Origin: Bacilli bacterium
GTDB taxonomy: Bacteria; Bacillota_I; Bacilli_A; ML615J-28; CAG-698
DNA length: 64,000 bases
Assembly (NCBI GenBank): GCA_050953065.1
Contig: JBMNLZ010000003.1
Span: 192,001-256,000 of the forward strand
Direction: 5' to 3'
Shown here in pieces: positions 41,041 to 64,000 of this stretch; the stretch's first letter is position 1, and every line of letters starts with the position of its first letter. The translations under genes were made by a program, and so were the position numbers. The notes under the pieces were generated by a model. That model saw only the letters and a list, made by a program, of their open reading frames with translations, was not told where the DNA came from and did not search any database.

Positions 41041-41076
41041 AAATAAAAACTACCATAAAAATATTTTTTATGGTAG
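41041..41076 (-). terminator. Riboswitch expression-platform terminator 1
   Basis: CTACCATAAAAA/TTTTTATGGTAG + TTTTTATTT; overlaps the aptamer 3' end. Confidence 0.85.
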
Positions 41077-41144
41077 CTGGCTATCTTACATCTAAGACCC
41101 TGTAGTTTTCCGTCACTAAATCACTCTAGTTTTGGCTTTTTCAT
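41070..41144 (-). ncRNA. c-di-GMP-I (GEMM) riboswitch aptamer, copy 1
   Basis: GCCAAAACTAGA-GTGA-TTTAGTGACGGAAAACTACAGGGTCTTAG...AAGATAGCCAGCTACC; GNRA loop; promoter TTGACA-17-TACAAT at 41167-41195. Confidence 0.9.
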
Positions 41145-41274
41145 TTATTTATCACTTTGTATTTATATTGTAGCAAATAATTTTAATCTTGTCAACAAAT
41201 AAACACATTTTTTTAAAAATTTTTTTTTGATTGATTATTATAAATAGTTATCTTAGTAAAATGTATTTTTTAAG

Positions 41275-41941: not shown

Positions 41942-42045
41942 AAATAAAAACTACCATAAAAATATTTTTTATGGTAGCTGGCTATCTTACATATAAGACC
42001 CTGTAGTTTTCCGTCACTAAATCACTCTAGTTTTGGCTTTTTCAT
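41942..42045 (-). ncRNA. c-di-GMP-I riboswitch copy 2 with terminator (aptamer 41971-42045)
   Basis: 105/106 identical to copy 1; begins 27 nt after the stop of 42073-42555. Confidence 0.9.
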
Positions 42046-42072
42046 ATATTTTGCTAATTCTTTACTAACTTT

Positions 42073-43230: not shown

Positions 43231-43333
43231 AATAAAAAAGCGCCATAAAAACTTTATGGCAGCTGGCTATCTTATACTTAAGACCCTATAGTTTTCCGTC
43301 ACTAGATCACTCTAGTTTTGGCACTTTTACACA
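43231..43333 (-). ncRNA. c-di-GMP-I riboswitch copy 3 with terminator (aptamer about 43256-43333)
   Basis: GCCAAAACTAGA-GTGA-TCTAGTGACGGAAAACTATAGGGTCTTAAG...AAGATAGCCAGCTGCC then GCCATAAA/TTTATGGC + T-run; promoter TTGACA-17-TATACT at 43339-43367. Confidence 0.9.
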
Positions 43334-56039: not shown

Positions 56040-57170
56040 TTAAGATAATCTAGATTTAAAATCTTGATAACCAAATTCTTTAACTATTTTTACTTCACCA
56101 TTCTTTTCAACATAAACAATACTTGGTAAATTAATACCATTAAATGTATTATTCTTAACCATACTATAATGAGCCATATCAGTAAAAATAACTCTTTGTT
56201 TATATTCTAGTGGTTTATCAAATGAATAATCTCCAATAATATCTCCTGCTAAACATGTCGGTCCAGCAAAACGATAATTATATTTTTTTTCACCTAGCCT
56301 ACCACTGTTTAAAACAAATGGTCGATAAGGCATTTCTAAAACATCTGGCATATGACAAGCAGCCGAAGTATCTAGAATAGCAATATCCATATTATTATGA
56401 ACAATCTCTAAAACTTCTGATACTAAAAACCCAGTATTTAATGCGATGGCTTCGCCTGGTTCTAGGTAGACTTCTAAATTATATTTTTCTTTAATTTCAT
56501 TAATTGTTTTAATTAATAAGTCTAAATCATAATCATCTCTTGTAATATGATGACCTCCACCTAAATTAATCCATTTAATAGAAGAAAAATATTTTGAAAA
56601 CTTCTTTTCTACTTCTTTCCAAGTTCTATACAAAGTATCTGAATTTTGTTCACACATTGTATGGAAGTGTAGCCCTTCAAGCCCATCAAGCGTTTCAAAG
56701 TCTTCAAGCCTAACTCCAAGGCGCGAATTAATAGCACATGGATTATAAATCTCATGTTCAATTTCTGAATACTCGGGATTAATCCTCATCCCACAACTAA
56801 TATGTTTTTTATGGTTTTTAACTAAATTTTTATATTTATGCCATTGGTTAAATGAATTAAAGACAATATGATCCACTATATCTAGAATTTCAGACATTTC
56901 TTCTTCTTTATAAGCAGGAGAGAAAATATGATTTTCTTTACCTATTTTTCTCCCTAAAAGTGCTTCATGCAAAGATGAAGCAGTTGCTCCATAAAGATAC
57001 TTTGAAATTAATGGATATGTATAAAACATTGAAAAACCTTTTTGAGCCAATATTATTTTAGCGTTTGTTTTATCTTGAACTGTTTTTAGTTTTTCTAAGT
57101 TTTTTATTAATAATTCTTCAAACACTACATATGAAGGTGTTTTAACTTTATTCCAATCAAAGTTTTTCAT
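56040..57170 (-). CDS. nspC: Carboxynorspermidine/carboxyspermidine decarboxylase
   Basis: LAQKGFS, GLHFHT, GGGHH, EPGEA, HMPDVLEMPY, CLAGD, FNGI. Confidence 0.95.
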   Translation of the reverse strand: MKNFDWNKVKTPSYVVFEELLIKNLEKLKTVQDKTNAKIILAQKGFSMFYTYPLISKYLYGATASSLHEALLGRKIGKENHIFSPAYKEEEMSEILDIVDHIVFNSFNQWHKYKNLVKNHKKHISCGMRINPEYSEIEHEIYNPCAINSRLGVRLEDFETLDGLEGLHFHTMCEQNSDTLYRTWKEVEKKFSKYFSSIKWINLGGGHHITRDDYDLDLLIKTINEIKEKYNLEVYLEPGEAIALNTGFLVSEVLEIVHNNMDIAILDTSAACHMPDVLEMPYRPFVLNSGRLGEKKYNYRFAGPTCLAGDIIGDYSFDKPLEYKQRVIFTDMAHYSMVKNNTFNGINLPSIVYVEKNGEVKIVKEFGYQDFKSRLS

Positions 57171-57174
57171 ACTA

Positions 57175-58374
57175 TCAATCTACTAACTTTGGATTGAAGT
57201 CTTCATGCCAAGGAAGACCATATTTATTTAATGCTTCCATAAATGGATCTGGATCAAATTCTTCTACATTAAAGACACCTGGTTTTTTCCATTTCTTATT
57301 TAAAACAAGCATTGCTCCTATCATTGCAGGAACACCAGTTGTATATGAGATTGCTTGAGAACCAACTTCTTTATATGCTTCTTCATGATCACAAACATTA
57401 TAAACATAATATGTTTTATCTACACCATCTTTTTTACCTCTAATGATACAACCAATATTAGTTTTACCTTTAGTTCTTGGTCCAAGAGAAGCTGGATCTG
57501 GCAAAATTGCTTTTAAAAATTTTAGAGGAATAATTTCTTGCCCTTTATAATTAATCGGTTCAATTGAAGTCATTCCAATGTTTTCTAAAACTCTTAGGTG
57601 TGTTAAATATTTTTCAGAAAAAGTCATAAAAAATCTAATTCTTTTAATTCCCTTAATGTTTTTAGCAAGTGATTCTAATTCTTCATGATATAAAAGATAC
57701 ATATCTTTTTTACCAATTTTGGGAAAATCATATTCACGCTTCACTTCAAGTGGTAAAGTTTCAACAAACTTTCCATCTTCATAATATCTTCCGTTAGCTG
57801 TAATTTCTCTGATATTAATTTCCGGATTAAAGTTTGTTGCGAAATGATAGCCATGATCTCCTGCATTAGCATCTAGGATATCTAAATATTCAATTTCATC
57901 AAAATAATGTTTTTGAGCATAGGCAGTAAAGACTCCAGTTACACCAGGATCAAACCCACAGCCTAAAACTGCAGTAATTCCTGCTTTTTCAAACTTTTCT
58001 TTATATGCCCATTGCCATTTATATTCAAACTTTGCTTCATCTTTTGGTTCATAATTAGCTGTATCTAAATAATCTACCTTTGTTTCTAAACAAGCATCCA
58101 TAATAGATAAATCTTGATACGGTAATGCAACATTGATTACAATATCAGGTTTAAATTCTTTTATTATTGCTACTACCTCACTAGTATTATCTGCATCAAG
58201 TTGAGCAGTAGTAACTTTTGTTTTATATTTTTTTACACTTTCCTTAATCGCATCACATTTAGCAAGCGTTCTACTCGCAATACAAATTTCCTTAAAAACT
58301 TCACTGTTTTGGCAACACTTATGCACGACAACGTTTGCCACTCCACCAGCTCCAATAATTAATGCTCTACTCAT
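57175..58374 (-). CDS. Carboxynorspermidine/carboxyspermidine dehydrogenase (saccharopine dehydrogenase family)
   Basis: IIGAGGV, ALPYQD, DTANYE, GFDPG, FATNFNPEIN, YHEELESL; adjacent to nspC. Confidence 0.93.
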   Translation of the reverse strand: MSRALIIGAGGVANVVVHKCCQNSEVFKEICIASRTLAKCDAIKESVKKYKTKVTTAQLDADNTSEVVAIIKEFKPDIVINVALPYQDLSIMDACLETKVDYLDTANYEPKDEAKFEYKWQWAYKEKFEKAGITAVLGCGFDPGVTGVFTAYAQKHYFDEIEYLDILDANAGDHGYHFATNFNPEINIREITANGRYYEDGKFVETLPLEVKREYDFPKIGKKDMYLLYHEELESLAKNIKGIKRIRFFMTFSEKYLTHLRVLENIGMTSIEPINYKGQEIIPLKFLKAILPDPASLGPRTKGKTNIGCIIRGKKDGVDKTYYVYNVCDHEEAYKEVGSQAISYTTGVPAMIGAMLVLNKKWKKPGVFNVEEFDPDPFMEALNKYGLPWHEDFNPKLVD

Positions 58375-58405
58375 AGTAAACGTCTCCTTTATTTAATATA
58401 TTTTT

Positions 58406-59257
58406 TTATAATTGTAATAATAATTCTCTTAATAACTTGCAAGCAACTGCAGTTGAAGTCCCACTTGGGTCAAGCGGAGGTGATAATTCATTAATATCAC
58501 AACCAACAATATTGCAACCCTTTAAAACTTTACCCATTGCTTCAAGTAATTCTAAAAATGTTACTCCACCTGGTTCTGGAGTTCCTGTTCCCCAAAAATA
58601 TGATGGATCTAACACATCTAAATCTAGTGTAAAATACACTGGTTTCCCTTTTGTTTTTTCAATTGCGGAATCAAGCCCATCAAAATTAAATTTGGTTAAG
58701 CAAGAATGGATTTTAGCCCATTCAAACTCTTCTTTTTCTCCGCTTCTAATTCCAAATTGGAATATTTTATTATCACCAATTAAATCATGAATTCTTCTAA
58801 TAACAGTTGCATGTGATAATTTTTCATCAAAGAATTCATCTCTTAAATCAGTATGTGCGTCAAAATGAATCACATGCAAATCAGGATATTTTTTTAAAAC
58901 TCCCTTAACAGCACCAAGTGTTACTAAATGTTCACCACCTAGCATTACTGGAATCTTATTGTCTTTTACAACTTGTGTTGTATACTTTTCAATTTTTTCA
59001 ATAGATTTTTTAGCATCTCCAAAAGGTAATACTAAATCTCCTCCATCAAAAACAAAAATATCCGTTAATGATTTATCTAAATACGGACTATATAGTTCAA
59101 GTCCAATACTATCTGTTCTAATACTACTTGGTGCAAATCTAGAACCTGGTCTAAAAGATGAAGTACTGTCAAATGGTGCTCCAAACAATACTATTTTACT
59201 TTCTTTATATGACTTATCACAACCAAGAAAGGCATATCGCTTTTCTGTTATAATCAT
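58406..59257 (-). CDS. speB: Agmatinase
   Basis: GGEH, DAHTD, DLDVLDP, GTGTPEPGG. Confidence 0.94.
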   Translation of the reverse strand: MIITEKRYAFLGCDKSYKESKIVLFGAPFDSTSSFRPGSRFAPSSIRTDSIGLELYSPYLDKSLTDIFVFDGGDLVLPFGDAKKSIEKIEKYTTQVVKDNKIPVMLGGEHLVTLGAVKGVLKKYPDLHVIHFDAHTDLRDEFFDEKLSHATVIRRIHDLIGDNKIFQFGIRSGEKEEFEWAKIHSCLTKFNFDGLDSAIEKTKGKPVYFTLDLDVLDPSYFWGTGTPEPGGVTFLELLEAMGKVLKGCNIVGCDINELSPPLDPSGTSTAVACKLLRELLLQL

Positions 59258-60090
59258 TTAATTAACTCCTTTACATAATTAGGTAGCGCAAAAGAACCTT
59301 TGTGTAGTTCTTCATTATAATATTTACATTCTATTTTAAAATCTTTCCAAGCACTATCTACTACATCACCCTTAAACTTCTTAGATGCAAAGCCAAACAA
59401 CCAATGACCTGACGGATAGGTTGGAATATGTGCTTGATATACCTGACAAATATCAAAGAAGCTAGAAATTCTTTGATGCATTTTAGTAACCATATCTTTA
59501 TATTGTTCATAAAATGGGCTTTCATGTTGATTAATTAAAATTCCATTTTCATTTAAAGCATTATAACAATTTCCATAAAACTCTTTTGCAAAAAGCCCTT
59601 CTCCAGGACCAAATGGATCAGTTGAGTCTACAATTATTAAATCATAATAATCTTTAATTTGTCTAACAGCTTTTAAGCCATCTTCAAATTTAATTGTTAC
59701 TCTTTCATCTTTAAAGCCTCTTGTAAGATGCGGAAAATATTCAATACATTTTTCAACTACTACTTTATCAATTTCAATCATTGTAATTTCTTTAATAGTT
59801 TTATATTTTACCAATTGACTAACAGTTCCACCATCCCCTGCTCCAATTACTAAAACTTTTTCTATTTTTGGATTAACTGCCATCGGAAGATGAGTCACCA
59901 TTTCATGGTAGATGAATTCATCTTTTTCTGTAATCATTAAAACACCATCTAAAACTAAAATTCTACCATAATCATATGTATCTAGGATATCAAGTTTTTG
60001 ATATTCTGATTTTACACTACATAAATGTTCTTTTATTTTCATAGTAAGTTTAGCTGTTTCACTATGTAATTCTGAAAACCAAAGTTCCAT
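59254..60090 (-). CDS. speE: Polyamine aminopropyltransferase (spermidine synthase)
   Basis: DEFIYHEM, VLVIGAGDGG, EID, DSTDP, PTYPSG-W. Confidence 0.95.
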   Translation of the reverse strand: MELWFSELHSETAKLTMKIKEHLCSVKSEYQKLDILDTYDYGRILVLDGVLMITEKDEFIYHEMVTHLPMAVNPKIEKVLVIGAGDGGTVSQLVKYKTIKEITMIEIDKVVVEKCIEYFPHLTRGFKDERVTIKFEDGLKAVRQIKDYYDLIIVDSTDPFGPGEGLFAKEFYGNCYNALNENGILINQHESPFYEQYKDMVTKMHQRISSFFDICQVYQAHIPTYPSGHWLFGFASKKFKGDVVDSAWKDFKIECKYYNEELHKGSFALPNYVKELIK

Positions 60091-60092
60091 AT

Positions 60093-61538
60093 TTATTCCT
60101 CTACTATATTAATTTTTTCAATATTCATATCTTGCGGACCAATAATTAAACATCCTTTATCTTTAGCATACATTATATAGTCAATGATTTCAGCTGTAAT
60201 TACTTCGCCTGGTGCTAAAATTGGAATTCCCGGAGGATAACTCATTAAGAATTCTCCAGCAATTTTACCATAACTTTCTTCAATACTAACCTTTTTCTTT
60301 TTACTATAAAAAGCCTTTTGAGGACTCATTACAGGTAATGGATTAATATATTCATGATCAAAAAGACCAATCGGATCTTTTCCATAACGTCTTTTAATTT
60401 CAGATAAAGAAGCAATCAATCTTTCAATTTCTAAATCTCTATCTCCAGAAGAAATGATTGCTAGAATATTTCCAATATCTCCAAATTCAATTTGAATCCC
60501 GTAATCATCCCTTAAAATATCATAAACCTCTATTCCAGCCAAGCCCATTGCTCTTGTGTGAACTGATAGTTTTGTCATATCAAAATCAAAAACATTTTTC
60601 TTATCAACTATATCTTCTCCAAAAGCCCAGTATCCACCGATTTTATTTACTTCTTCTCTTGCATAATTAACATTTTCTAAAACTTTTTTTAACTTTTCTC
60701 TTCCATGTGCTACCATATGTTTTCTTGCAATATCAAGAGATGATAACAATAAATAAGATCCACTTGTAGTTTGAGTAAGATTTATAATTTGTCTAACATA
60801 AGTATGATCTACATTTTTCCCACAAAGCAAAAACGAACTTTGAGTTAATGAATTTCCAGTCTTATGCATACTAGCAGCTGCCATATCAGCTCCTGCTGCC
60901 ATCGCAGAAATTGGTAAGTTATCTCCAAAATAAAAGTGCGTTCCATGAGCCTCATCTACTAACACTTTCATATTATGTGCATGAGCAAGTTCAACGATTC
61001 CTTTTAAATCTGAACATATCCCATAATAAGTTGGATTATTAACAAAAATTGCTTTTGCATCTGGATTTTCTTTGATTGCTTTTTTTACATCATCCATACT
61101 CATTCCAAGTGCAATCCCTAAATCTTTACTAACACCAGGATTAATATATACAGGAATCGCCCCACAAACAACCATCGCATTAATTGCACTTCTGTGGACA
61201 TTTCTTGGTAAAATTAATTTTTCACCTTGTTTACAACTACTCATTATCATTGCTTGAACAGCTGAAGTTGTTCCACTAACCATAAAAAATGCATGATGAG
61301 CTTTAAAAGCCTCTGCTGCTAAGAGTTCAGCTTCTTTGATAACTCCAGTTGGATGACAAAGGCTATCCACATCTTTCATAGAATTAACATCTGCTCTCAT
61401 ACAATTAATTCCTAAAAATTCAGTTAATTCAGGATTGCCCCTTCCACCTTTATGGCTAGGCACATCAAATGGTACTATACGATTTTGTTGGTGAGCTTTT
61501 ATTGCTTCATAAATTGGTGCTCTTGTTTGATCTTTCAT
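60093..61538 (-). CDS. speA: Arginine/lysine/ornithine decarboxylase (PLP fold I; probably arginine decarboxylase)
   Basis: VPSHKGG, GTTSA, PRNVHRS, DEAHG, SMHK, YPPGIP; operon context with speB. Confidence 0.8.
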   Translation of the reverse strand: MKDQTRAPIYEAIKAHQQNRIVPFDVPSHKGGRGNPELTEFLGINCMRADVNSMKDVDSLCHPTGVIKEAELLAAEAFKAHHAFFMVSGTTSAVQAMIMSSCKQGEKLILPRNVHRSAINAMVVCGAIPVYINPGVSKDLGIALGMSMDDVKKAIKENPDAKAIFVNNPTYYGICSDLKGIVELAHAHNMKVLVDEAHGTHFYFGDNLPISAMAAGADMAAASMHKTGNSLTQSSFLLCGKNVDHTYVRQIINLTQTTSGSYLLLSSLDIARKHMVAHGREKLKKVLENVNYAREEVNKIGGYWAFGEDIVDKKNVFDFDMTKLSVHTRAMGLAGIEVYDILRDDYGIQIEFGDIGNILAIISSGDRDLEIERLIASLSEIKRRYGKDPIGLFDHEYINPLPVMSPQKAFYSKKKKVSIEESYGKIAGEFLMSYPPGIPILAPGEVITAEIIDYIMYAKDKGCLIIGPQDMNIEKINIVEE

Positions 61539-61548
61539 GTTTCACCTT

Positions 61549-62331
61549 TTAGTAAATATTAGTTCCACTAAATATTTCAATCATTTCTTTTCTTAAACTA
61601 TTTGTTATTTCAAGTCTTACTTTTGGGTCTAATTCATAAACATCTGTATTAAATAAATAATGTTGTAAGTTGATTTCCTTAATTAACATTTTTGTATGAA
61701 AAATGTTAGATTGATAAACATTAACATCAATTGCATCATATATTTTTAAAGTATCAGAACTTATATAGTCTTGAATTGAAGTAATTGAATGGTCTAAAAA
61801 ATGTTTTTTTCCATCTGTATCTCTTGTAAAGCCTCTAACTCTATAATCAATTGTTATAATATCAGAATCAAAACTACTAATTAAAAAGTCTAGGGTACTT
61901 AATGGAGAAATTGTTCCACATGTAGAAACATCAATATCTACTCTAAAAGTAGAAATATTGTTAGCAGGATTATATTCAGGATATGTATGAACTGTGATGT
62001 GGCTTTTATCTAAATGCCCCATAAAATATTTATCAAAATCTTTTCCTAGATTGCATGACTTATCAACCAATTGTTTATCAATTGGTTCTTCTACTAATAA
62101 TAAGTTAACACTTGCTCCTTGTGGCTCATAATCTTGTTTTGAAATGTTTAAAATTTTTGCACCGATTAATTCTGAAACCTTACAAAGAATCGCTGTTAAT
62201 CTTTCACTGTTATATTGTTCATCGATATATGCAATATAATCTAAGTGTTCTCTTTTTGTTTTAGCATAACAAATATCAAAAATGTTAAAGCTTAATGTTT
62301 TTGTTAGATTGTTAAAACCGTATAATTCCAT
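61549..62331 (-). CDS. speD: S-adenosylmethionine decarboxylase proenzyme (E. coli-type)
   Basis: GFNNLTK, YEPQGAS, HLDK-SHITVHTYPE self-cleavage site, VSTCG, DYRVRGFTR. Confidence 0.95.
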   Translation of the reverse strand: MELYGFNNLTKTLSFNIFDICYAKTKREHLDYIAYIDEQYNSERLTAILCKVSELIGAKILNISKQDYEPQGASVNLLLVEEPIDKQLVDKSCNLGKDFDKYFMGHLDKSHITVHTYPEYNPANNISTFRVDIDVSTCGTISPLSTLDFLISSFDSDIITIDYRVRGFTRDTDGKKHFLDHSITSIQDYISSDTLKIYDAIDVNVYQSNIFHTKMLIKEINLQHYLFNTDVYELDPKVRLEITNSLRKEMIEIFSGTNIY

Positions 62332-62361
62332 GTGTCTTCTCCTTCAAAGATTATTTTAAAT

Positions 62362-62390
62362 ATAAAAAACCTAATTGACTAATTAGGTTT
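62362..62390 (-). terminator. Attenuator terminator in the speD leader
   Basis: AAACCTAATT-agtc-AATTAGGTTT-TTTAT on the minus strand, about 30 nt before the speD start. Confidence 0.85.
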
Positions 62391-62450
62391 AATAGGTTTC
62401 TTACATAATTCTAGTTATTGTTTGTGATAATACTAGCATATATCAAAAAC

Positions 62451-62568
62451 CTATTAAATTGCGGATTTTACCGACGGCTCCGGAATCTCACCAGAACTTA
62501 TTTAACATGGGCTCGTTGACATATGTCACATTACCACCGATGAAGTTATGGAATACTCCACCTAATAA
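62451..62568 (-). ncRNA. FMN (RFN)-fold riboswitch variant upstream of the polyamine operon
   Basis: CGGUGGUAA...AGCCCAUG, UUCUGG-UGAGAUU-CCGGAGCC and CGG-UAAAAU-CCG match RFN P3/P5/P6; P1 UUAUUA/UAAUAG; ligand-pocket positions altered. Confidence 0.8.
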
Positions 62569-62575
62569 CAATGTT

Positions 62576-62604
62576 AGTTTATCATAATAGTGTTGTTGTG
62601 TCAA
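62576..62604 (-). promoter_or_regulatory. Sigma-70 promoter of the polyamine operon
   Basis: TTGACA-17 nt-TAAACT with extended -10 TG; predicted start about 62569-62570, at the aptamer 5' end. Confidence 0.8.
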
Positions 62605-62617
62605 TTACTTTTATCTT

Positions 62618-64000
62618 TTATTTGCCTTTTATATAATACCTTTTAGGAGACGTTTTTTTATATTTAATCAAACAAGTATTCTTATCTCCAATTAAATCAC
62701 TACGCCCTGCTTTAATTAAAGCCTCTTTTACTAATTCATAGTTTTGAGGTAAATGATACTGTAAAAGAGCTCTTTGCATTGCTTTTTCGTGTTTATCTTT
62801 TGCAACATAAACCTTATCTTTTAAGAATGGATCCATTTCTGTATAATACATACAAGTTGAAGCTGTCCCTGGGGTTGGATAAAAATCTTGAACTTGTTCA
62901 GGTCGATATTTATTTTCTTTTAAATAAAGTGCTAACTTTATAGCAGAAGAAATTGTTGAACCAGGATGAGATGATATTAAATAAGGAACAAGAAACTGTT
63001 TCTTATCATATTTTTCATTTAATCTTTTAAATTCTTCTACAAAGCTATCATATAGTTTTTTAGAAGGTTTTCCCATTCTTACTAAAACATCATCATCTAT
63101 ATGTTCTGGTGCAACTTTTAGTTGCCCTGAAATATGATGCTTAACTAACTCTTCAAAAAACTCTTTATTCTTATCATACATTATATAATCATATCTTAAA
63201 CCACTTCTAATAAAGACTTTTTTAACATTATCAAGCCCTCTTAGAGTTTTTAAAATCTCTAAATATTCTTTATGACTTACTTCCAGTCTTTCACAAGGAT
63301 TAAAACCAATACACTCTTTATTAACGCAAGCTCCATGTTCTTCTTGTTTACTACAAGCTTTATTATAAAAATTAGCAGTAGGTCCTCCAACATCATGAAT
63401 ATAACCTTTAAAATCAGACATCGCAGTAATCAACAAAGCTTCATTTACAATAGAGTCTTTACTTCTTGATTGAATGATTCTGCCTTGATGCATTGTTAAT
63501 GCACAAAAATTACAGCCTCCAAAACACCCTCTATTAGCAACAATTGAAAACTTAACTTCATCAATCGCTGGAACATGTCCTTTTTTTTCAATTAAAGGAT
63601 GAGTTTTTCTCATGTAAGGCAATTCATAAACTGCATCTAATTCTTTCCTCGACAAAGGAAATTCAGGTGGATTTTGAACTACATATTCTTTATCATAAAC
63701 TTCAACTAAGGCTTTTCCACTAAATGCATCAGTATTATTATATTGCATAATGAAACTATTTAAATAATCTTCTTTATTATTTACTATTTCTTTATAGGTA
63801 GGTAACTTTAAATACTCATATGCTACCATATCTAAAGACCTAGTTTTATAAACTGTATTTCTGATATATATTATATCTTTAATATCCATCCCGCTATTTA
63901 GCGCATCTGCTATTTCAACAATAGGTTTTTCTCCCATCCCATAAACCACTATATCAGCTTTAGAATCTATTACTATTGATTTTAAAACTTTATTATCCCA
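62618..64000 (-). CDS. ygiQ: YgiQ-family radical SAM protein (5' part lies outside the window)
   Basis: Frame open to the window edge (WDNKV...YGMGE); RGCFGGCNFC, DVGGPTAN, LKVAPEH, SSHPG, EQVQDFYPTP. Confidence 0.92.
   Translation of the reverse strand, partial: WDNKVLKSIVIDSKADIVVYGMGEKPIVEIADALNSGMDIKDIIYIRNTVYKTRSLDMVAYEYLKLPTYKEIVNNKEDYLNSFIMQYNNTDAFSGKALVEVYDKEYVVQNPPEFPLSRKELDAVYELPYMRKTHPLIEKKGHVPAIDEVKFSIVANRGCFGGCNFCALTMHQGRIIQSRSKDSIVNEALLITAMSDFKGYIHDVGGPTANFYNKACSKQEEHGACVNKECIGFNPCERLEVSHKEYLEILKTLRGLDNVKKVFIRSGLRYDYIMYDKNKEFFEELVKHHISGQLKVAPEHIDDDVLVRMGKPSKKLYDSFVEEFKRLNEKYDKKQFLVPYLISSHPGSTISSAIKLALYLKENKYRPEQVQDFYPTPGTASTCMYYTEMDPFLKDKVYVAKDKHEKAMQRALLQYHLPQNYELVKEALIKAGRSDLIGDKNTCLIKYKKTSPKRYYIKGK

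Follow-up and report, generated by a model that had tools for sequence, protein, structure and literature searches.

A divergent FMN riboswitch relative in the leader of a polyamine operon of a Bacilli bacterium

What is an RNA that resembles the flavin mononucleotide (FMN) riboswitch doing in front of genes for polyamine synthesis? The question is raised by a minus-strand leader in a stretch of 64,000 nucleotides from the genome of a Bacilli bacterium (GenBank assembly GCA_050953065.1, contig JBMNLZ010000003.1, positions 192,001 to 256,000), which is referred to here as the window and whose numbering is used throughout. A sequence-only reading of the window had described this leader as an FMN-type aptamer with a rewired ligand pocket, in which binding of spermidine or a pathway intermediate would lock helix P1 and so allow a terminator to form. 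The answer that we prefer, and hold tentatively, is that the leader, of about 240 nt, is a maintained and bistable derivative of an FMN riboswitch in which read-through at a weak terminator is probably controlled, the effector being something other than a flavin.

Descent, flavin-contacting positions and conservation of the leader

Scanning of 62250-62700 with cmscan gave a match to the FMN family RF00050 on the minus strand at 62445-62574, covering the whole model (1-138 of 138) with 36.4 bits and an E-value of 8.6e-7, and a scan of the whole genome returned the same place (E 7.2e-7). RF00050 is the only significant family in this region, the next best having an E-value of 1.4, and neither the SAM-I family nor the ldcC motif (RF02440) gave a match there at E up to 10. 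The gathering score of RF00050 is 66.2 bits; at that threshold no match is obtained at the leader, and the window yields two tRNAs and three c-di-GMP-I riboswitches. The full-length and significant match, recovered at the same place in the genome scan, indicates that the leader, though very divergent, is truly related to the FMN aptamer, and judged by its sequence it descends from an FMN riboswitch. The sequence-only reading had expected a partial and low-scoring match: the score is indeed low, but the alignment is not partial.

Several parts of the FMN fold are recognizable in the cmscan alignment, which was also used to place the P3-P4 positions; MAFFT alignment with canonical aptamers misaligned that part. 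P2 (62542-62559) consists of five pairs, GGAGU/ACUUC, and its loop has no T-loop sequence, an unrelated loop of 8 nt having replaced the T-loop L2. P3 (62507-62537) has four pairs, GUGG/CCAU, and contains an inserted 4-bp hairpin, UGAC-AUAU-GUCA; by folding, the same interval is also the 5' arm of the rod described below. P5 with its T-loop UGAGAUU (62479-62495) and P6, CGG/CCG with the loop UAAAAU (62462-62473), are present in every predicted fold. The two junction C-G pairs and the sequences of J2/3, J5/6 and L3 are retained, as is the L5 T-loop, and L6 is retained save for one base that changes jointly with its tertiary partner. Relative to the RF00050 consensus, a G-C pair of P2 has become A-U and a C-G pair of P3 has become U-A, both changes keeping the pair. 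P1 is vestigial: three of its eight pairs are non-standard in the Rfam alignment, and by manual reading it amounts to six A-U or G-U pairs in the window and four or five in the sister species introduced below; its 5' strand together with J1/2 forms segment E (AUUAGGU, 62560-62566), which copies part of the 3' arm of the terminator. P4 is unformable because its two pairs would close only 2 nt. Of the six helices of the FMN junction, P2, P3, P5 and P6 are therefore there, P1 is a vestige and P4 is absent. The helix assignment made by eye holds for P3 with its insertion, for P5 with UGAGAUU and for P6, and needs correction for P1, which is nearly gone, and for the 'minimal' P4.

In the FMN riboswitch, according to PMC12219259 and PMC6298564, the isoalloxazine ring is stacked between A48 and A85 and paired with A99, and the phosphate side is built from G11, G12, G62 and G84 with C31, G32 and C83; G12 rests on the C30-G93 pair (PMC12219259). 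We inferred the equivalent positions of the leader, in Fusobacterium nucleatum numbering, from the order of the junctions, so the numbers are not tool output. In the cmscan alignment both stacking adenines are replaced by U (A48 at 62505, A85 at 62474), G98 is C (62461), A63 is U (62496) and G10 is A, while A99 remains A (62460) and the equivalents of G11, G12, G32, G33, G62, G84, C31 and C83 are all retained. The tertiary pair C30-G93 has become U-A with both sides altered, as seen in the cmscan and the family alignments. The consensus bases at the 3'-half and J1/2 positions are retained in 30 of 30 aligned canonical aptamers of the same family. The by-eye identification of the changes at A48, A85, G98 and A63, of the lost L2 loop and of the retained A99, G62 and G84 proved accurate, and with such substitutions the leader most likely no longer recognises FMN.

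A second version of the element is found in a sister species, whose sequence appears as genome G035, as GenBank record L071 ('MAG: Bacilli bacterium') and as metagenome contig L174, the genome of the window being G000. The aptamer core (62455-62562) is identical at 104 of 108 bases in the two species, and the FMN-aptamer-like domain as a whole (62445-62574) at 122 of 130, as against 202 of 383 fourfold-degenerate sites in speD, the decarboxylase gene, speE and speB; the flanking genes share 86-88% nucleotide identity. All four core changes sit in loops or preserve pairing: a G.U pair becomes A-U in P2, two bases differ in the L2 loop, and an A-U pair becomes G.U in the P3 insert. In the linker that follows, 36 of 50 bases are identical, and two segments discussed below, A and B, agree at 11 of 12 and 12 of 12 positions, B lying inside the linker. 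The excess of identity in the core over the fourfold sites places the leader under purifying selection and makes a functionless, decaying relic very unlikely. A DNA run (X4) has no listed difference from the window across 62332-62660.

Competing predicted folds around a weak terminator

The terminator that the sequence-only reading had placed at 62362-62390 is borne out, though it is weak. A hairpin with the stem 62390-62381/62376-62367 and the loop AGUC is followed by a tract of six U (62369-62364), the whole feature occupying 62364-62390, and its predicted energy is -8.3 kcal/mol, or -4.9 without the three A-U pairs that it shares with segment B. A consensus scan missed it because it has only two G-C pairs and the scan requires three; in the sister species it is conserved with a shorter stem. 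Segment A (62447-62458), which comprises the end of J6/1, the 3' strand of P1 and its flank, is the exact complement of segment B (AAACCUAUUAAA, 62388-62399), and B overlaps the terminator stem by 3 nt, both as had been reported; the complementarity can be extended to 20 nt at 85%. In addition, segment E can pair with the 5' arm of the terminator at 62382-62388, a helix that we call E:C. With E:C stacked on A:B and with P2, P3, P5 and P6 in place, the leader reaches its minimum-energy fold in the window sequence just before the 3' arm of the terminator emerges (-48.3 kcal/mol, compared with -48.0 for the rod at a nearby length), and the terminator is predicted to be masked in this state. The canonical FMN switch that resides elsewhere in the same genome masks its own terminator with the equivalent 5' segment: at length 150, shortly before its terminator 3' arm is transcribed, it is predicted to fold as an antiterminator, its 5' P1/J1-2 segment being paired to the terminator 5' arm.

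The strand lying directly 3' of the aptamer (62424-62459), which joins segment A to a further strand termed Y (62424-62446), is complementary to 62500-62537, that is, to the 5' strand of P3, the insert, the 3' strand of P3 and J3/4. In the minimum-energy folds it serves as an anti-aptamer 3' arm, and the resulting rod has about 34 pairs and is capped by P5 and P6. The 122-nt rod segment has a predicted energy of -38.2 kcal/mol with a z-score of -4.68, none of 200 shuffled sequences being equally stable, whereas the aptamer interval folded alone has a z-score of -1.75 and does not adopt an FMN aptamer fold. For the leader up to the end of strand Y the FMN-like fold is predicted at -16.2 kcal/mol and the minimum-energy fold at -46.7, so that the rod is more stable by about 30 kcal/mol. 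Once strand Y has been made, the rod is the minimum-energy fold of the window sequence except for the E:C and A:B state just before the terminator 3' arm, and each of the three lengths tested for the sister species likewise has the rod as its minimum-energy fold. Strand Y carries one change relative to the sister species, the remaining linker being much more diverged, and this change (62436, C to U) lies opposite a change in the 5' arm (62526, A to G), so that an A.C mismatch becomes a G.U pair in the sister species; by a rough estimate, the probability that one change in each arm of about 36 positions meets the other by chance is about 1 in 36. The resident canonical switch has no anti-aptamer strand, and its six-helix aptamer is the minimum-energy fold at five of six lengths tested.

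The rod bears directly on the proposed rewiring of the ligand pocket. In it, the U that replaces A48 is paired with the new J6/1, 62496 (the A63 position) pairs with 62478 and extends P5, and 62461 (the G98 position) pairs with 62475 and extends P6; only the U at the A85 position is left bulged. Most of the pocket substitutions have an ordinary base-pairing explanation, since A48U, A63U, G98C and J6/1 are all paired in the rod. The substitutions named in the sequence-only reading are real, but a new ligand pocket is not their sole interpretation. The near-loss of P1 and the absence of P4, the conserved strand with its rod, and the pairs that the pocket substitutions create there had escaped that reading, and the OFF mechanism that it rested on P1 is weakened, P1 having only four to six A-U or G-U pairs.

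Conserved structure and mutually exclusive pairings (A:B, E:C, terminator and rod) appear to occur together in the leader, as predicted by folding. From the FMN homology, the conservation, the complementarities, the gene context and the predicted energies we propose two cellular states and an effector that acts between them. In State I, which would lead to termination, 62424-62459 would invade P3 and J3/4 by pairing with 62500-62537, and P5 and P6 would cap the resulting long rod; this would release B together with the 5' arm of the terminator, and the terminator would form, ending transcription at 62364-62369. In State II, which would permit read-through, the FMN-like core would form with its two junction C-G pairs and with P2, P5, P6 and P3, the last including the inserted hairpin, and both strands of the former P1 would be splinted on RNA further downstream, A (62447-62458) with B (62388-62399) and E (62560-62566) with 62382-62388, thereby masking the terminator. 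A non-flavin effector would shift the balance between the two states. The most plausible candidate is an intermediate or an end product of polyamine synthesis, and feedback repression at high polyamine is favoured, the direction not being fixed by sequence; the grounds for this choice are the position of the leader, the analogy to a known spermidine switch and the occurrence of the ldcC motif at related operons, both taken up below. The weakness of P1 casts doubt on a classical P1-locked state.

Operon, distribution and expression

A sequence check located the leader on the minus strand as it had been quoted, and the promoter claimed for it was recovered as well: TTGACA and TAAACT, separated by 17 nt and with a TG before the -10 hexamer, lie at 62576-62604 (-) and match the consensus at 10 of 12 positions in a consensus scan, placing the likely start of transcription near 62569. 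In the sister species both hexamers are identical and the spacer has diverged, 20 of the 29 promoter bases being identical overall. Promoter-like sites are not in excess in the region (3 seen, 3.6 +/- 2.3 in shuffled sequences). The leader spans the approximately 240 nt between this promoter and speD, whose ribosome-binding site AAGGAG (62339-62344) and start codon (62329-62331, from the open reading frame list) make up 62329-62344; no credible sense-strand reading frame for a leader peptide follows the start site.

Six genes on the minus strand form the operon (56040-62331) by their family matches: speD (61549-62331; TIGR03331, 406 bits, cut-off 255.8), an Orn/Lys/Arg decarboxylase of 481 amino acids (60093-61538), speE (59254-60090), the agmatinase gene speB (58406-59257), a CASDH-like gene of the saccharopine dehydrogenase type (57175-58374) and nspC (56040-57170). 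The polyamine context given in the sequence-only reading stands, with the reservation that the CASDH-like product, closest to carboxynorspermidine synthase, scores 437 bits, below the cut-off of 800; no riboflavin gene, other flavin gene or flavoenzyme was found among the six. The SpeD/SpeE aminopropyl route, the CASDH/NspC carboxyaminopropyl route, an arginine decarboxylase and an agmatinase are joined here in a single operon. Because both known routes to spermidine-type polyamines are present, the end polyamine may differ from plain spermidine. Elsewhere in the order speE directly follows speD. Upstream of the leader, 62618-63949 (-) encodes a radical SAM protein with Radical_SAM_N and DUF3362 domains; since only 13 nt separate the end of this gene from the -35 hexamer and no terminator was seen in the gap, transcription may read through from it into the leader. 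Apart from this locus, the window contains three c-di-GMP-I aptamers (RF01051, 55-58 bits, cut-off 35) at 41069-41146, 41970-42047 and 43255-43332, all on the minus strand and within about 2.3 kb, an unusually dense arrangement.

The element is very rare. Among 57 genomes of the family, RF00050 identified a canonical aptamer over the cut-off in 47 and the sub-threshold element in two, namely G000 and G035, and a DNA similarity search of the same 57 genomes found the leader only in the window and in the sister species (88%); 18 further places returned by that search were dismissed as A+T-rich matches of 24-47 nt without weight. When the P5-P6 core was searched for with a tight pattern (T at 85 and C at 98, at most one mismatch), 2 of 106 genomes of the order had it; in its exact form the pattern occurs at one locus of a metagenome collection, that of the sister species, the window's own genome possibly not being counted there. 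A looser pattern for reference genomes (any base but A at 85, any but G at 98) occurs in at least 120 stretches, of which 80 loci were listed; among these 80, one (L071) is of this type and stands with polyamine genes, 50 fall into a different FMN-like group, 12 represent the P2-P3 half of an ordinary FMN aptamer and four are from Collinsella. In a sample of 151 genomes of the class, RF00050 matched in 119, each with a match over the cut-off (73.4-122.2 bits), and the leader is the only match listed below the cut-off at E <= 0.001.

The search from the side of speD led to the same picture. In the order, speD is present in 13 of 106 genomes, and the 11 loci outside the genus are speD-speE pairs with short leaders and no FMN-like match at E <= 0.1; one of them, from the family to which the window belongs, has a lysine riboswitch (RF00168, 73.9 bits, L182:3424-3599) about 300 nt downstream of speD-speE. 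Among the scored genomes of the class sample, speD at E <= 1e-40 occurs in 36 of 399, and the best SpeD identities there (64-71%) exceed those within the order (57-64%), the best four sharing the order speD-decarboxylase. Of 28 further speD loci of this sample, 16 were scanned, chosen mostly for an upstream gap of about 140 nt or more (L188, 103 nt), and none has an RF00050 match at E <= 0.5; at the other 12 the gaps of 7-133 nt are too short for the element. In the searches made, therefore, the element is restricted to one genus, carried by two of the order's 106 genomes and by a single metagenome contig. The conserved homologues upstream of polyamine genes elsewhere for which the sequence-only reading had called did not turn up beyond that genus in the genomes and metagenomes searched, and with homologues so limited the pocket is not assessable by covariation. 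The canonical FMN switch of the same genome (120.7 bits) is located upstream of a gene for a protein with the substrate-component domain of an energy-coupling factor (ECF) transporter.

Some of the other loci listed by the looser pattern deserve mention in their own right. The 50 loci from records of Christensenella, Christensenellaceae and Clostridia (e.g. L061, L064, L088, L095 and L119; range L052-L131) are FMN-like aptamers with C, rarely T, at A85, with A, rarely T, at G98, and with A, C or T at A99; six that were scanned scored 52-71 bits, around the cut-off of RF00050, and an ECF riboflavin-transporter S component (PF07155) lies downstream in three of three tested. This group may be the published 'subtype 1' or a further group of variants. 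The P5-J5/6-P6 pattern also matches ordinary P2-J2/3-P3 halves (L054, L065, L074, L076, L077, L091, L096, L097, L110, L116, L126 and L127), which we attribute to the internal two-fold likeness of the FMN fold; an ordinary aptamer was confirmed for L054 (109.6 bits), and the P5-P6 half of the variant, with its C after P6, resembles the canonical P2-P3 half more. The four Collinsella loci (L057, L086, L089 and L104) share a conserved stretch that fits the T/C pattern, and L057 has no Rfam match at E <= 0.001.

As to expression, contigs from RNA libraries match the region without differences at 62325-62477 and 62448-62536 (X15), 62340-62490 (X17) and 62159-62342 (X16), and the first of these spans the terminator with at least 31 bases on either side of the hairpin and U-tract. 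The contigs are compatible with a transcribed leader and some read-through; they show no ends or levels, stretches that they leave uncovered carry no information, and since DNA can occur in RNA libraries the evidence for transcription is weak. Runs labelled as metagenomes of anaerobic digesters, bioreactors and sludge contain 64-100% of the sampled words of the stretch.

Alternative explanations and comparison with known systems

The proposal of a bistable leader has to be weighed against the possibility that the structure is maintained and the switch is gone. In such a relic, an FMN riboswitch would have been zipped into a rod with hairpins and selection would maintain that structure without any small-molecule ligand; it could serve as a constitutive attenuator, as an element of processing or stability (the duplex of about 34 bp would suit a double-strand RNase), as a protein-binding site or as a structure with a non-specific stability response to cations such as polyamines or Mg2+. 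The advantage of about 30 kcal/mol held by the rod, its place as the minimum-energy fold in both species, the pairing of A48U, A63U, G98C and the new J6/1 within it, the vestigial P1, absent P4 and lost L2 T-loop, and the lack of relatives found beyond one genus all speak for this explanation, a serious rival that we nevertheless consider less likely than the bistable leader. It leaves unexplained why B is conserved at 12 of 12 positions as a complement of A when A is buried in the rod, why the FMN-type L3 and the T-loop of L5 have been kept, along with the junction C-G pairs and the change of C30-G93 to U-A on both sides, and why the changes in P2 and P3 relative to the consensus keep their pairs. 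A relic that is simply decaying, without function, would account for the low score against Rfam, the loss of P4, the weakness of P1 and the confinement to a single genus; given 104 of 108 identical bases in the core against 202 of 383 at fourfold sites it is scarcely credible, and the 86-88% identity of the flanking genes speaks against rescuing it by a very recent transfer of the locus. The decayed one-off switch that the sequence-only reading had named as grounds for abandoning its claim is accordingly disfavoured.

Two further explanations keep a ligand-binding aptamer at the centre. The model of the sequence-only reading, in which the rewired pocket binds spermidine or an intermediate, P1 is locked, the terminator forms and the rod has no role, draws on the pocket changes, on the perfectly complementary partner that the P1 3' strand has beside the terminator, on the biosynthetic operon and on the precedent of the SAM-I-derived spermidine OFF switch (PMC10853860); we regard it as unlikely, since it must work with a P1 of six A-U or G-U pairs here and four or five in the sister species, leaves the conserved strand Y and the rod unexplained, and competes with a simpler pairing explanation for most of the pocket changes. 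The leader might instead still sense FMN or another flavin and link polyamine synthesis to flavin status, as the retained A99 equivalent and phosphate-side guanines would allow and as the known FMN variants, which still bind flavin derivatives (PMC6298564), would suggest; yet U replaces both stacking adenines, the equivalents of G98, G10 and A63 are altered, the L2 T-loop and P4 are lost, the leader has 36 bits when every other match listed in the 151-genome class sample has 73-122, a canonical FMN switch of 120.7 bits is already present in the genome, and the operon contains neither a flavin gene nor a flavoenzyme. Continued flavin sensing is accordingly very unlikely.

Several points weigh against the bistable leader as well. 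The sequence by itself points to no ligand, and the phosphate-side guanines, all of them kept, leave room for a flavin-related or phosphate-bearing one. The comparison comprises just two species-level sequences, and no helix of either state is supported by covariation beyond single events. The nearest-neighbour energies leave out tertiary structure and ligand. The terminator, with its two G-C pairs, is weak and was not called by the consensus scan, and A:B shares no more than 3 nt with its stem. A central A.A mismatch interrupts E:C in the sister species, where State II is the minimum-energy fold at none of the lengths tested. If the rod forms once strand Y has been transcribed, a ligand-free and a P1-locked state would both terminate, and there is no obvious ON state. 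With these reservations we still tentatively prefer a maintained, FMN-derived leader whose read-through is controlled by a non-flavin effector. A more specific claim, which we consider possible and on balance improbable, is that in this genus the FMN fold has come to sense a polyamine-pathway metabolite other than a flavin, for example spermidine or a polyamine akin to it, agmatine, decarboxylated S-adenosylmethionine or methylthioadenosine.

How RNA sensors evolve can be seen in variant riboswitches that keep a scaffold and change the ligand, and such variants have proved fruitful in the search for new ligands; the only validated class of polyamine riboswitch is a variant of SAM-I, the ldcC motif still being an orphan. 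If the leader does sense such a polyamine-pathway metabolite, a riboswitch on the FMN scaffold would for the first time have a ligand other than a flavin, and the polyamine pathway would gain a second class of riboswitch, unrelated in structure to the first; its platform would be unusual in setting a dedicated anti-aptamer strand against the entire P3 domain. Even without a ligand it would be a clear example from nature of a riboswitch junction that has closed up into a new, stable structure under selection, which bears on how riboswitches are lost or converted; the rod complicates the claim of a new ligand and yet gives the element an interest of its own.

No paper tying an FMN-type RNA to polyamine genes was found in the literature searched, which did not take in the supplementary sequence list of PMC6298564 (57 variants), in agreement with the sequence-only reading, and the leader is apparently undescribed so far. 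The closest papers are PMC6298564, PMC10853860, PMC5737381, PMC12219259 and PMC11477304. With FMN riboswitches the leader shares the order and sequence of P2, J2/3, P3/L3, the P5 T-loop, J5/6, P6 and the junction C-G pairs, and also a platform in which the 5' P1/J1-2 segment mimics the 3' arm of the terminator, as in the canonical switch of its own genome. It differs in its score (36.4 against the 66.2 bits of the gathering threshold), in the vestigial P1, absent P4 and lost L2 T-loop, in the altered equivalents of A48, A85, G98, A63 and G10, in having a dedicated anti-aptamer strand and a rod fold, and in preceding polyamine genes instead of genes for riboflavin synthesis or transport. The FMN variants of subtypes 1 and 2 (Atilho et al. 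2019, PMC6298564) likewise have an altered binding site, unusual genes and a rare occurrence. They keep positions 48, 85 and 99 and turn guanines on the phosphate and ribityl side into adenines, the reverse of what is seen in the leader; they precede the transporters COG3601, EmrB and NorM, whereas no transporter lies downstream of the leader, and subtype 2 is described there as an ON switch that binds riboflavin and lumichrome.

At the same operon position other RNAs are known. The SAM-I-derived spermidine riboswitch is, according to Salvail et al. 2023 (PMC10853860), a terminator OFF switch before speD, speE, speB and ldcC. It resembles the leader as a variant of a cofactor aptamer that stands before polyamine genes on a terminator platform and of which feedback control would be expected, a likeness of placement only and not of membership, and it has an unrelated fold; binding and OFF function are shown for it in that source. 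The ldcC motif (RF02440) is, according to Weinberg et al. 2017 (PMC5737381), an orphan leader before genes for arginine, ornithine or SAM decarboxylases with a proposed link to polyamine homeostasis, and a small hairpin with a possible pseudoknot; it has no likeness to the structure of the leader. The closest speD-decarboxylase operons that we found have 67-71% SpeD identity, and two of them carry the ldcC motif upstream of speD and the decarboxylase gene (L189:1135-1185, 68.2 bits; L190:1173-1225, 60.3 bits), in terminator-ended leaders of about 300-350 nt from two other families of the class. The presence of this motif in related operons indicates that the operon-leading position is commonly held by a regulatory RNA, and if the FMN-type leader senses a metabolite of the pathway, that one position would be filled by at least three unrelated RNAs across lineages.

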